Part shown: piece by piece, positions 46,079-64,000 of the stretch
Numbering within the stretch: position 1 is the first letter of the stretch
Layout: every line of letters starts with the position of its first letter
Origin: a virus
Lineage: Duplodnaviria; Heunggongvirae; Uroviricota; Caudoviricetes
DNA: 64,000 nt
Reading direction: 5' to 3' (one strand)
Virus record (IMG/VR): IMGVR_UViG_2609459826_000002
Program-made: the position numbers and the translations under genes
Notes under the pieces: model-generated
What the model was told of the DNA's origin: nothing
The model's input: the letters and a program-made list of their open reading frames with translations, nothing else
Databases searched by the model: none

Positions 46079-46121
46079 ATATCTGAACATAAAACACTAT
46101 CAGTAAGTTAGAGTCATTACC
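46079..46121 (+). mobile_element. Solo IS1 right-end remnant (~40 bp)
   Basis: ATCTGAACATAAAACACTATCAGTAAGTTAGAGTCATTACC nearly identical to the last ~40 bp of the intact IS1 at 46856..46896. Confidence 0.6.
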
Positions 46122-46183
46122 TCGAGATGGTAATGGTGCCAACTTACTGATTTAGTGTATGATGGTGTTTTTGAGGTGCTCCA

Positions 46184-46459
46184 GTGGCTTCTGTTTCTAT
46201 CAGCTGTCCCTCCTGCTCAGCTACTGACGGGGTGGTGCGTAACGGTAAAAGTACTGCCGGACATCAGCGCTATCTCTGCTCTCACTGCCGTAAAACATGG
46301 CAGCTACAGTTCACTTACACCGCTTCTCAACCCGGTACGCATCAGAAAATCATTGATATGGCCATGAATGGCGTTGGATGCCGGGCAACCGCCCGCATTA
46401 TGGGCGTTGGCCTCAACACGATTTTACGTCACTTAAAAAACTCAGGCCGCAGTCGGTAA
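46184..46459 (+). CDS. insA: IS1 InsA
   Basis: 91-aa [43 protein letters not shown]... matches InsA. Confidence 0.9.
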
Positions 46460-46881
46460 CCTCGCGCATACAGCCGGGCAGCGATGTGATTGTCTGCGCT
46501 GAAATGGACGAACAGTGGGGCTACGTCGGTGCTAAATCACGTCAGCGCTGGCTGTTTTACGCGTATGACAGGATACGGAGGACGGTTGTGGCGCACGTCT
46601 TCGGTGAACGCACTCTGGCCACACTGGAGCGTCTTCTGAGCCTGCTGTCGGCCTTTGAGGTCGTGGTATGGATGACGGATGGCTGGCCGCTGTATGAATC
46701 CCGCCTGAAGGGAAAGCTGCACGTAATCAGCAAGCGATACACGCAGCGCATTGAGCGACATAACCTGAATCTGAGACAACATCTGGCAAGGCTGGGACGG
46801 AAGTCACTGTCGTTCTCAAAATCGGTGGAGCTGCATGACAAAGTCATCGGGCATTATCTGAACATAAAACACTATCAGTAA
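46378..46881 (+). CDS. insB: IS1 InsB (expressed by -1 frameshift as InsAB')
   Basis: 167-aa ORF ending ...[12 protein letters not shown], matches InsB. Confidence 0.9.
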
Positions 46882-47048
46882 GTTGGAGTCATTACCCGTC
46901 CTCCGGTATTGAAAGTTAATACACAAATCAGGATGATGGAGGCTCATACTGGTACAGCGCGACCACTTATGCAGGCGTCTCTGTCAGGTTTGTTGCCCGG
47001 ATCACCCGCATCAGGGACAGGGCTGTTCAGTTATCCGCAGGAGAAAAT

Positions 47049-60032: not shown

Positions 60033-60061
60033 TACGACGCCATGAGCTTGAGGCAAAACGC

Positions 60062-61462
60062 TTATTCTACCATGCAAGTTCGCAGCGGCCAGTAGCAGAA
60101 TGCGTCCGGTGTGATGCCAGAGAACATTAGCTGCCCTGAACAGGCCGGGAAGTAGCGGCAGCTCATCACTCCTTCGCCGCCGTTGATGAAAATCTCCACG
60201 CTAGACTGGTCGATGAAAATATGCAGCGAGCGGACGTCTCCGCGCCAGTAACGATAATGCTTCTCGTCGCTGGCCAGACTGGGTCGGGCCAGGCGGATCC
60301 CGCTGGCATCGCGTTCAAGGATTAATGCGCCGTCAAAATCGAGGCTCAAAATATCGTCCCCAGTGGTTTGTAGAACGATTTCCATCGGTGCCAGCGGCAG
60401 GGAGTTCCCTGCCCAGCCGTGCGCTTCGCCGCGCAGGGCGCTCAGCTCTCGTAGAGGACGTTGGTATAGCTGACCATCGATAAACTCCAGCTCACGCAGG
60501 CAGGTCATCTGATGGATCCAGCCGTTGGTGAGGGTCGGTTGAAGCATCTCTTCGCCCTCCGGCACGCCCATCCAGCCGACCAGCAGACGGCGGCCATCAC
60601 TGGTAAGCATGGTTTGCGGGGCGTAGAACTCAAACCCTGCGTCCAATTCGTGCAGTTCGCCATGCCCGAAGGCCGCGCGGTGGTAGTCGAAATCGCCGCT
60701 CATCCACACTGCCGGGTAGGTGTTGAGATAGCGCTCTTTCTCACGAGGCACGCCCTGCGGGCAGCAAATCAGGACATGCTGGTCGCCGAGGGCAAACAGG
60801 TCCGGGCATTCCCACATATAGCCCGCGTCGTCCAGGCCATTGATGCCATAACCGGCGATTTCGCCCTGACTCGTCCACTCATGAAGGTCCGCTGAGCTGA
60901 ATAACAACACCTTGCCACGCTTTTGCAAATCCTGTGCGCCCAGCACCATGTACCAGCGACCTTCGTGCTGCCAGACTTTCGGGTCACGCACGTGGCCGGT
61001 ATAGCCCTCCGGCAGCGGTAATACCGGGCCGAGTTTGGTAAACGTGCCGTCGGCATTTTCCGTCGCCAGGCACTGCCACGCGGTTCGGCTGCCGTCGTCA
61101 AATTTTACGTTGCCGGTATAGCACAGGGTGAGCGTGCCCTGACTATCCACGGCGCTTCCGGAGTAGCAGCCGTTGCGGTCATACTCTTCATCCGGCATGA
61201 GCGCGATCGGCTCATGTTGCCAGTGCAGCAGGTCGGCAGAGCTCCAGTGCCCCCAGCACTTGAACTTATGATCGCAGGCGAGCGGGTTCCACTGATAAAA
61301 CAGGTGATAACGTCCGGCAAATTCAATAAAGCCGTTGGGATCGTTCATCAGCCCGGTCACCGGCGCATGGTGCCAGCGGGGATAGTGGCTGTCGGCCAGC
61401 GCGCGCGGCTGGCCCTGCATAACAGCCTGCAAAATCGCAGGCAGGCGTGATGGATGTGACAT
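60062..61462 (-). CDS. scrB: Sucrose-6-phosphate hydrolase (GH32)
   Basis: 466-aa ORF with MNDPNG, RDP and EC motifs of GH32. Confidence 0.85.
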
Positions 61463-62832
61463 TATTCAGCGTCCGTTTTGTATTTCAGTACCAGGGAGAC
61501 GACAAAGGCGACGCCAAAGGCGATAACCATCCCGATAATGTAGTTCAGCAGCGAGCTGGCCTGCACGATAGCCATGCCAGGGATAGCCGTCAGGCCCACC
61601 GCGGTCATGTAAACATGCATGGATACCACCCACGCGCCGCCCACCGCGCCGCCAATCAGGGCTGCGATAAACGGTTTTACAAAGCGTAAGTTAATACCAA
61701 AAATCGCCGCTTCGGTGATGCCGAGCATGGCAGAAAACGCCGAGGGCAGGGTAATGGCTTTGATTTTGGCATCTTTCGTTTTGAACCACACCGCCAGACA
61801 AGCACCGCCCTGAGCGACGTTGGCCATCGCCCAAATCGGCAGCAGGAAGTTGACGCCGATGGATGGGTTGCCCAGCAGTCCCGCTTCGATGGCGTGGAAG
61901 CTGTGGTGAATACCGGTAATGACGATAACCGAATAGAGACCGCCAAACAGCAGTCCGGCCAGCCAACCGGCGTGGGTAATCAGGGTGCTAAGGACAAACG
62001 AAATACCGTCGCCAAGCGCGCGACCAGCCGGGCCGATAATCAGCAGGGCGATAAAACCGGAAATGATCACCGTCAGGAACGGCGTCAGGATCAGATCCAG
62101 TGCATCGGGGATCACGCGACGCAGCTGTTTCTCAACGATGCTCATAAACCACACCGCCAGCAGCACCGGGAACACCGTGCCCTGATAGCCGATCATGGCA
62201 ATCTCAAGGCCGAAGAAGTTCATGGTGTGGAAACCGGCGGCCACACCCCAGGCGTTGGTGAGCGCCGGGTGAGTCAGGATGCCGCCAAGCGTCGCGCCAA
62301 GATAAGGATTACCACCGAACTCGCGGGCGGCGGTGAAGCCAATCAGGATCGGCAGAATAATAAACGCCGCTGAGCTGCACATATCCAGCATGATGTAGAT
62401 GGCGTTACCCGGGTCGACCCAGCCGTACGTTTTAACCATCCCCAGAAGGCCCATCAACAGGCCGGAGGCGACGATAGCCGGGATGATCGGCACAAAGATG
62501 TTCGACAACAGGCGGGCAATGCGCTGGAAAGGATTCAGTTTTTTCGCCGCAATGTCGGCAGCTTCCGATTTGCTGGATTCGCCAATCCCTGCCGCCTGGA
62601 TAAAGGCGGCGTAGACTTTGTTCACCACCCCGGTGCCGAAGATAATCTGCATCTGTCCGGCGTTACGGAAACAGCCCTTCACCCCATCAATTTTGCCGAT
62701 GGCCTGCTGATCGGCCAGTGAGTCATCGACCAGCACCAGGCGCAGGCGTGTGGCACAGTGCGCGGCGCTGGCGATATTTTCCTTGCCTCCCAGAAGCGGA
62801 AGTAGCGAGCGGGAAATCTGTTCAAAATCCAT
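61462..62832 (-). CDS. scrA: PTS sucrose-specific EIIBC component
   Basis: 456-aa ORF; N-terminal IIB domain with active-site Cys (AAHCATRLRL) followed by polytopic IIC domain; no IIA domain. Confidence 0.9.
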   Translation of the reverse strand: MDFEQISRSLLPLLGGKENIASAAHCATRLRLVLVDDSLADQQAIGKIDGVKGCFRNAGQMQIIFGTGVVNKVYAAFIQAAGIGESSKSEAADIAAKKLNPFQRIARLLSNIFVPIIPAIVASGLLMGLLGMVKTYGWVDPGNAIYIMLDMCSSAAFIILPILIGFTAAREFGGNPYLGATLGGILTHPALTNAWGVAAGFHTMNFFGLEIAMIGYQGTVFPVLLAVWFMSIVEKQLRRVIPDALDLILTPFLTVIISGFIALLIIGPAGRALGDGISFVLSTLITHAGWLAGLLFGGLYSVIVITGIHHSFHAIEAGLLGNPSIGVNFLLPIWAMANVAQGGACLAVWFKTKDAKIKAITLPSAFSAMLGITEAAIFGINLRFVKPFIAALIGGAVGGAWVVSMHVYMTAVGLTAIPGMAIVQASSLLNYIIGMVIAFGVAFVVSLVLKYKTDAE

Positions 62833-62969
62833 AGTACCCTCTGAATGCGTATTGATTTTCGAGTTGTCGTCCCGTGGTAGCCGGAGCGCATTCTCTTCGT
62901 TGTTATTGTGTCCGGGGCGACGAAACGTATTTTGTCGCCCCGGCGGTTACTGTCGCCAGGTGTTAACCA

Positions 62970-64000
62970 TCAAAACCAGGTTTCCATCTGCATCCCGAAC
63001 GACCATTCGCCGCCCGATTTAAAACCACTGCTGCCCAGCGCGTCATCGCTGGCGTAATTATTGAGTTTTTTGCTCCAGTCCATCCACGAGGTGTAAAGAC
63101 GGATTTCAGGACGGCTGAAGAAATCGCCGATGTCGCCAACCTTAAAGGTCGGGGCGAAGGTGAGCTTGTAGAAGCTGCCGTTTACCGCATGGCGATCGTT
63201 ATAACCTTCAGGTTTGAGATCCATATACTGGTAACTGCCTTCATAAGCGAGGGCGAAGTTTTGATTGATCTCCTGGATCAGACGCATGTTGAGGGTTGCC
63301 CACTGGTAGCTGTCGCCATCGACATAACGGTCTTTACTGGTTTGTGCCAGTATCGCTGGGGCGATAAACCAGTTCTTGCTCAGTGGCGTGGTGCCGTAGC
63401 TGGCGAAGCGCCAGGTGTTAGCCCCCGAGCGTAACGCGCCGTCAGAGCCGACACCTTTAACTTCGGCACCCAGTCCGTGACCGTAGAGCAGGGCGGTTTT
63501 GCTGGCACCTTCACGCAGGCCGTAAAAACTGTCGTTGTGCAACCCGAGCAGCGCATGTACACCGGTATTTGCCGCATCGCCTTTGACCGGATTACCGTTG
63601 GTATCCTGGCGTTCGTCGTTGTCTTTTGCCCGCATCCCGCTGACCATCATCTGCACCGGCCCGATGAAATTGTTCATGCTGACGATGTAGTTCTGCACAC
63701 TGTTGCTGGTATCAGCAATATCGCCGAAGTTACGCCCGTAAAGAGAGAAGTTGCTGCGAACGCTGTCGTTCCACCTGACATCGTAAATACCGCCGCCGGT
63801 ACCGGCGAGGAACACGACATCCGAGTCGATCCAGTGAATGTCAAAGTTATCCCGGTCAAAGCGTTTCCCGGCCCACAGGGTGGAGCCTTTAAACGGCCCG
63901 TCGAAGGTGGGCAAGTTGCCCAGTTCAACAAAGGCCTGACGCACGTTCAAATCACTGGTGCTCGCCGTCCAGTCGTTATAAGTGGTTTGACCGTCGGCGA
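62970..64000 (-). CDS. scrY: Sucrose porin ScrY (3' part; gene runs off window end)
   Basis: C-terminus ...[14 protein letters not shown] typical of LamB/ScrY sugar porins; reading frame stays open upstream of the TTG-annotated start to position 64000. Confidence 0.85.

Follow-up and report, generated by a model that had tools for sequence, protein, structure and literature searches.

How do a raffinose operon (raf) and a sucrose regulon (scr), both of long-known kinds, come to lie tail to tail in the chromosome of one Escherichia coli strain? The question is raised by a 64,000-nucleotide stretch of DNA (IMG/VR record IMGVR_UViG_2609459826_000002; "the window" throughout), which is bases 1-64000 of contig JNPJ01000107.1 of E. 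coli 2-156-04_S4_C1 (GCA_000703665.1), window and contig coordinates being equal. Open reading frame (ORF) listing and family scans place rafR-rafA-rafB-rafD on the plus strand (47049-53038), converging on scrR-scrB-scrA-scrY on the minus strand (59028 to the window end). This is where an original prediction, made from the letters of the window, had put them, and the matches to the expected families are strong. Remnants of mobile elements occupy the interval between the two clusters: the debris of insertion sequences (IS) that the prediction described is there, together with an intact group II intron, a crr-like gene for an EIIA protein of the phosphotransferase system (PTS), designated crr', and a 5'-truncated ScrY-like porin gene; the intron, crr' and the truncation of the porin had escaped it. 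An IS1414 remnant in the same interval, also missed, holds an intact astA (EAST1) ORF. As an observation the prediction thus stands for the most part; as an interpretation it stands in part.

The answer proposed here is that raf and scr were most likely fused by recombination within a mobile intron that both modules share, and not bracketed by copies of IS1. The segment is an ordinary mosaic gene island of an E. coli chromosome. Taken as a whole, the best explanation (we put its probability at roughly 0.7) is that two known modules lie tail to tail as island cargo, fused by way of their intron copies.

A joint within a group II intron

Positions 46897-53694 of the window are 99.9% identical to chromosomal raf modules; on the other side the window matches scr islands at 99.8-99.9%, starting at 58685 or, for islands that have the intron, at about 56415. 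The intron occupies its conserved insertion site, and its flanks come from two different insertion sequences: the 5' exon is IS1203-like and the 3' exon is IS911-like (IS family names are those of annotated relatives, which for the 5' exon means an IS1203-family relative at 95.7% identity). Stand-alone IS1203-like copies that carry the same intron (L035, L037, L039 and L040; comparison loci are cited by number) have 5' exons 99% identical to the window's, match it through exon and intron, and diverge 11 nucleotides into the 3' exon. In many genomes the IS911-like fragment lies beside scrKYABR, with or without the same intron, and the intron-less copies define the exact insertion site (it is empty in L006 and L014). 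With the scr-linked copies in L006 and L009 the window's 3' exon agrees throughout (100% identity), whereas its identity is 81.5% to that of L002, a common raf module, and 53% to the cognate 3' exon in L037. Copies of the intron itself differ at a handful of sites only; the informative ones, at 56827 and 57499, tie the 5' half of the window's copy to the IS1203 type. Flanks drawn from different insertion sequences point to homologous recombination between two intron copies, which is the simplest reading of the mismatch.

Downstream of the 3' exon, the limits of a short spacer (58856-59007) are set by what aligns on either side: homology to L002 stops at 58855, homology to a Klebsiella plasmid (L004) starts at 59008, and loci L006-L015 are continuous across. 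The spacer recurs in chromosomal scr islands and is not part of the IS1-bounded plasmid scr module; it was not traced to any other source. The common raf module carries a mismatch of the same kind: in L002 (19678-22428) an IS1203-like 5' exon is paired with an IS911-like 3' exon whose identity to its cognate counterpart is 50% (compared with L037), and this suggests an earlier intron-mediated recombination in the history of that module as well.

What is this intron? As far as target range and copy number go, its behavior matches that of E.c.I4 (PMC3522654): it uses one conserved site in the IS3-like transposases of IS629-type and IS911-type elements, has many near-identical copies per genome, and retains an intact gene for its reverse transcriptase (RT)/maturase, LtrA, whose exact protein recurs in 10,192 blocks of the collection searched. 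The window's copy is unlike E.c.I4 elsewhere in that its flanks come from different insertion sequences, and its assignment is by target range and copy number, not by reference sequence. E.c.I4 homes into IS629, IS911 and their relatives, and tandems of IS and intron have been argued to favor rearrangement (PMC3522654, Leclercq and Cordaux 2012). The intron begins with GTGTG and ends with CTAC, and the Rfam family Intron_gpII recognizes its domain V/VI at 58598-58684. At Rfam gathering thresholds the window yields nothing beyond this domain and the frameshift pseudoknot of the adjoining IS3-family element.

A proposed course of events

These comparisons lend themselves to a scheme with two starting modules. 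One would be the common raf module of E. coli, which is found on many chromosomes and some plasmids: rafR, rafABD and crr', originally followed by DUF2913 genes, a scrK-like kinase gene and a gene for a 498-amino-acid ScrY-like porin, and continuing into an IS1414 remnant and an IS1203/IS629-like element of the IS3 family interrupted by the group II intron. The other would be a scrK-scrYAB-scrR regulon of Citrobacter/Klebsiella type, which in many genomes stands beside an IS911-like element into which the same intron is inserted at the homologous position. Homologous recombination between two nearly identical 2.27-kb intron copies would have fused the modules, and its product would be an intron flanked by an IS1203-like exon on the 5' side and an IS911-like exon on the 3' side. 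Subsequently, a 2,152-bp deletion at a microhomology would have removed the kinase gene and the 5' end of the porin gene, and an IS1-associated rearrangement would have trimmed the left edge of the raf module.

The composite is found without the deletion in L020 and L026 (one assembly of a sequencing run, one metagenome contig). The window's form of it, with the identical deletion junction, occurs in three further samples (L029, L030 and L034); L034 matches the window at 99.98% across 17.1 kb, its break falling at the same edge of IS1.

Several observations weigh against so simple a course. The crossover is not placeable, the intron copies being near-identical: 3' of 57499 nothing separates the window's intron from the scr type. 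The first 200 bp or so of the IS1203-like part are themselves mosaic, so that there was probably more than one recombination event. The undeleted composites L020 and L026 have a raf allele only 97.1% identical to the window in rafD-crr' (19955-21401 of these loci), while their porin-to-scrY stretch is 99.85% identical; read at face value, this disparity means that recombination continued after the join and replaced the raf side. The exact RafA variant of the window was found in contig JNPJ01000107.1 only, its substitutions being absent from every other assembly. Finally, neither the ends of the island nor its attachment site fall within the window, whose 64 kb contain no tRNA gene.

Other ways of arriving at the same arrangement

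The original prediction spoke of an IS1-flanked rafRABD and of stepwise, IS-mediated assembly. Spelled out, copies of IS1 would bracket raf, or the entire raf-scr block, as a composite transposon of the Tn9 type, and the block would have grown by successive IS transpositions. An intact IS1 does abut the raf module, as it would at one edge of such a transposon's cargo, with an older IS1 end alongside. Plasmid scr modules are bounded by an IS1, and in six related loci a like-oriented IS1 is found 3,495 bp beyond the position of the window end; the source contig ends at 68,081, within the stretch where that copy is expected, and a second IS1 bracketing the whole 22-kb block is possible. In the window itself, however, BLAST of IS1 against all 64 kb detects one complete IS1 and a 53-bp remnant, both to the left of raf. 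The complete copy has no target duplication (the flanking 9-mers differ, CCTCGAGAT on the left against CGTCCTCCG on the right), and it truncates its would-be cargo, other raf modules extending at least 182 bp further to the left of 46897. Differing 9-mers and longer raf modules elsewhere together argue that this IS1 is no simple insertion: it would mark a rearrangement that cut off the left edge of the raf module. Relatives with the same composite have IS903B in place of IS1 on the raf side, and the raf-scr joint lies within the intron instead of at an IS end. An IS1 composite transposon is in our judgment unlikely. What survives of the predicted stepwise assembly is rearrangement associated with mobile DNA; an IS transposition junction between raf and scr does not.

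Might the two insertion sequences have recombined first into an IS1203/IS911 hybrid, the intron homing into it afterwards? The intron does sit at a homologous codon position in both IS types (between TY and V/I-W), and the 5' part of the element is visibly mosaic. Near the insertion site, however, the two types are only about 50-70% identical, a poor substrate for recombination when compared with 2.27 kb of near-identical intron, and no intron-less hybrid turned up among the loci fetched; that order of events seems decidedly improbable. A trivial explanation would be misassembly: the genome is a draft, E. coli carries the intron as a repeat in high copy, and a contig could have been misjoined across it or across an IS. 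Independent assemblies and a metagenome (L020, L026, L034 and L036) show the same linkage, however, and closed genomes are also linked, through a deletion that joins crr' to the 3' part of the intron beside scrR; recurrence of this kind makes misassembly very unlikely.

Practically no credence is due to the possibility that raf-scr is an ordinary chromosomal locus of E. coli, never rearranged. The raf module by itself is common in E. coli chromosomes, yet raf and scr occur together in only 4 of 5,426 complete E. coli genomes (ES10, ET776, ET734 and ET881; CP100909 and CP100922 are among the accessions), and the carriers differ in their flanks. The islands of these four resemble the window in their raf allele (99.9%), in their scr block (99.9-100%) and in having the same IS911-like fragment and spacer beside scrR. 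They differ from it in reaching at least 182 bp further to the left of raf, in their IS903B and in their chromosomal sites; they also lack the counterpart of 53673-58182, removed by a larger, independent deletion running from just after crr' into ltrA. Positions 46897, 53686-53694, 56415-58684 and 58855 are all junctions of rearrangement. Where the original prediction allowed that alignment might reveal a well-known unrearranged locus, alignment has revealed a rearranged composite, and the raf-scr block reads as the product of mobile-DNA-associated rearrangement and not as a conserved native locus. The derivation from plasmids that was also predicted is plausible and unproven: single modules occur on plasmids at about 99% identity, yet PLSDB holds no plasmid with both raf and scr. 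Literature searches found no description of the composite.

The two modules and what lies between them

Features of the raf-scr segment, in window coordinates (aa, amino acids)
Feature	Position	Strand	Description
IS1 3'-end remnant	46069-46121	+	53 bp; 91% identical to 46844-46896 (direct repeat); 7 bp upstream of complete IS1
complete IS1	46129-46896	+	768 bp; insA 46184-46459, insB frame 46378-46881; 23-bp terminal inverted repeats; NCBIfam transpos_IS1
rafR	47049-48059	+	LacI-family repressor, 336 aa; Pfam LacI and Peripla_BP_1; 78% identical to RafR of pRSD2-type locus
rafA control region	48081-48115	+	two inverted 14-bp operator-like sites, CCGAATCGTTTCGG and CCGAAACGATTCGG, around a TTGCTA -35-like hexamer; read from sequence
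rafA	48153-50279	+	GH36 alpha-galactosidase, 708 aa; Pfam Melibiase, GH36N, GH36C; 87% identical to pRSD2-type RafA
rafB	50334-51611	+	LacY-family raffinose permease, 425 aa; TIGR00882, 673 bits; 88% identical to Swiss-Prot P16552
rafD	51608-53038	+	GH32 invertase, 476 aa; scrB_fam, 445 bits; Pfam GH32N, GH32C; 83% identical to pRSD2-type RafD
crr'	53102-53617	+	glucose-PTS EIIA paralogue, 171 aa; NF006962, 235.7 bits (cutoff 212); matches solved IIAGlc structures
deletion junction	53686-53694		2,152-bp deletion relative to common raf module (alignment to L002)
truncated porin	53695-54590	+	ScrY-like, LamB family; Pfam LamB profile positions 103-378 only; 76% identical to pUR400 ScrY (PDB 1A0S)
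IS1414 remnant	54827-55624	-	IS256-family transposase without N-terminus; NCBIfam transpos_IS256 profile positions 106-336; annotated IS1414 in L002
astA	55204-55320	-	intact 38-codon ORF within IS1414 remnant; EAST1 enterotoxin variant, translation MPSTQYIRRPASSYASCIWCATACASCHGRTTRPSLAT*
IS1203/IS629-like 5' part	55616-56414	+	IS3 family (NCBIfam transpos_IS3); orfA 55674-56000, frameshift pseudoknot 55955-56071 (Rfam ALIL, 120.9 bits), start of orfB; 5' exon of intron
group II intron	56415-58684	+	2,270 bp; intact RT/maturase gene ltrA 57086-58594; group_II_RT_mat, 340.9 bits; Pfam RVT_1 and GIIM
IS911-like fragment	58685-58855	+	171 bp, IS3 family; 3' exon of intron, non-cognate with 5' exon; IS911/ISEc52 relatives 84-86%
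spacer	58856-59007		152 bp
scrR	59028-60032	-	LacI/FruR-type sucrose repressor, 334 aa; TIGR02417, 466.2 bits; exact protein in 8,092 collection blocks
scrB	60062-61462	-	sucrose-6-phosphate hydrolase, 466 aa; TIGR01322, 575.4 bits
scrA	61462-62832	-	sucrose-specific PTS EIIBC, 456 aa, without EIIA domain; TIGR01996, 653.7 bits
scrY	62970 to beyond 64000	-	sucrose porin, LamB family; 3' 343 codons in window

Are these two complete systems, as had been predicted? Within the window rafRABD, scrR, scrB and scrA are whole; scrY is cut by the window end, and scrK lies outside. The source contig supplies both: scrY is completed there (505 aa), and scrK follows at 64654-65577 (307 aa, PfkB), where the prediction had proposed looking for it, so that the gene order is Y-A-B-R with scrK upstream of scrY. 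After scrK come a small helix-turn-helix gene and a Mac-domain gene (locus L032, reaching 66,479). The 343 codons of scrY in the window are identical to WP_003029587, a 505-aa ScrY. Each of the exact proteins RafR, RafD, Crr', ScrR and ScrA is encoded on at least 1000 public contigs, and RafA and RafB are full length; widespread exact proteins and full-length RafA and RafB together suggest that the raf and scr genes are intact. The exact ScrB variant is in 80 collection blocks, and raf adjoins scr in all 10 of the places shown.

The two-site layout upstream of rafA is also present in a pRSD2-type locus (L041). By their sequence the sites are operator-like, and they are candidate RafR operators; Aslanidis and Schmitt are said to have placed such operators at the rafA promoter in 1990.

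The redundancy that had been predicted in invertase and porin functions finds no support here. RafD would hydrolyze sucrose and ScrB sucrose-6-phosphate; the two proteins are 38% identical, and different substrates are to be expected of them (RafR and ScrR are 26% identical). On the raf side the porin gene is a 5'-truncated remnant in the window's copy. The 2,152-bp deletion took out the DUF2913 genes, the scrK-like kinase gene and the first 197 or so porin codons, and its junction shows a short, imperfect microhomology (..GGGCTGGTA and ..GGGCGGGTA). What is left of the porin, whose intact counterpart in L002 has 498 codons' worth of protein, has no signal peptide and is in a different frame from the DUF2913 start; it is probably a pseudogene. 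The label "rafY" for the porin beside the common raf module is misleading: this is a ScrY-type porin, and in E. coli 2-156-04_S4_C1 a truncated one.

The crr' gene after rafD belongs to the common E. coli raf module (L001, L002, L003 and L016) and is absent from pRSD2-type loci. As a secondary possibility, its product might feed ScrA, or might relieve the inhibition of RafB by EIIA-Glc; if so, crr' would link the raf and scr systems functionally. The astA ORF travels with the common raf module, and astA variants are frequent within degraded IS1414 (PMC12585946).

At the left edge of the raf module, H6 (A134_1EC) was considered as a carrier of the same IS1-raf junction and rejected: other genes lie between its IS1 and raf. 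The approximately 245 bp from hsdM to the IS1 remnant (45824-46068) had no match among the loci fetched for comparison up to then; the same stretch covers most of a 97-codon ORF without a family hit.

Relation to the classical raf and scr systems

The prediction had proposed pRSD2-type raf and pUR400-type scr as the standards of comparison. The window's raf shares with pRSD2 raf the gene order and strand, the succession of families (LacI, GH36, LacY, GH32), the protein lengths (those of RafR, RafA, RafB and RafD in the table) and the operator-like layout, and it is nevertheless not the pRSD2 allele: nucleotide identity is 78.8% over 47037-53038, making it a 79%-identical relative. (The pRSD2-type loci, L041-L044, are loci encoding P16552, the RafB of pRSD2, and were reached by searching with the window's RafB.) After rafD these loci have a 464-aa RafY porin (Pfam Porin_8), whereas the window has no RafY and instead has crr' and the truncated LamB-family porin; TCDB sets RafY (TC 1.B.15) apart from the LamB/ScrY family (PMC4827864). 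These alignments make the window's raf a sister lineage of the pRSD2 operon, one that ends differently on its downstream side. An IS1203-like element with the same intron and a cognate 3' exon lies about 1.3 kb upstream of the raf operon in two pRSD2-type loci (L041 and L042, 1890-5373).

The scr side has the same five genes in the same order as the scr regulons of pUR400 and Klebsiella pneumoniae, a ScrA that is an EIIBC protein without an EIIA of its own, and a ScrY that aligns over its full extent with the pUR400 porin of solved structure. It too is a different allele: the window's ScrY is 88.9% identical to pUR400 ScrY (PDB 1A0S) over 342 aa, and the window's proteins are variants named from Citrobacter and Klebsiella. 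Its surroundings also differ from those in pUR400, being bounded by the IS911-like fragment and not set in a plasmid backbone.

What the two systems would do can be read from what is known of their families. Raffinose would be imported by RafB and split by RafA into galactose and sucrose, the sucrose then being split by RafD, with RafR as the repressor, acting at two operators of the rafA promoter. Sucrose would pass the outer membrane through ScrY and be phosphorylated on entry by ScrA, working with EIIA-Glc from the chromosomal crr gene and possibly from crr'; ScrB would hydrolyze the sucrose-6-phosphate, ScrK would phosphorylate the fructose and ScrR would repress.

The island around them

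Upstream of raf the window contains a prophage, genes for a phage integrase (32215-33378), a P4-type integrase (33543-34931) and a YagK/YfjJ protein, and a type I restriction-modification system. Between the two integrase genes (32215-34931) lie 165 bp; the P4-type enzyme has an Arm-binding domain and the other is phage-type, an arrangement that suggests tandem integration of a prophage and a genomic island. The same island is present in E. coli SL124, where Zorya follows hsdM at the place taken in the window by raf-scr. Other carriers have the composite in islands of AlpA/DUF3987/YagK type at different sites. It is reasonable to regard raf-scr as the cargo of an integrative element: the predicted location inside such an element fits a P4-type, integrase-bearing island, the ends of which lie beyond the window.

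Two further observations concern the neighborhood. Between hsdR and hsdS the minus strand holds a DUF4268 gene (41438-42625), which scores 577 bits against the PADLOC candidate defense family PDC-S11. The prophage contains an AT-rich cassette (20185-22574; 32-38% GC) of two genes, one for a 388-aa YejK/NA37-like nucleoid-associated protein and one for a 408-aa protein that had hits in neither Pfam nor PADLOC.

What the composite means

Raf and scr are textbook systems, and the segment leaves the understanding of either unchanged. The mosaic is one of many such islands, and the intron-borne joint is its only mildly instructive feature. One can ask how far that feature might extend. High-copy E.c.I4-like introns, lodged at the same site in different IS3-family elements, could serve as portable 2.3-kb homology cassettes that have repeatedly fused cargo modules in E. 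coli islands; on present evidence we would bet evenly for and against this generalization. The segment does give concrete support to the published expectation that tandems of IS and intron promote rearrangement (PMC3522654), and it stands as a worked example of how sugar-utilization traits are shuffled among plasmids, islands and chromosomes in E. coli.

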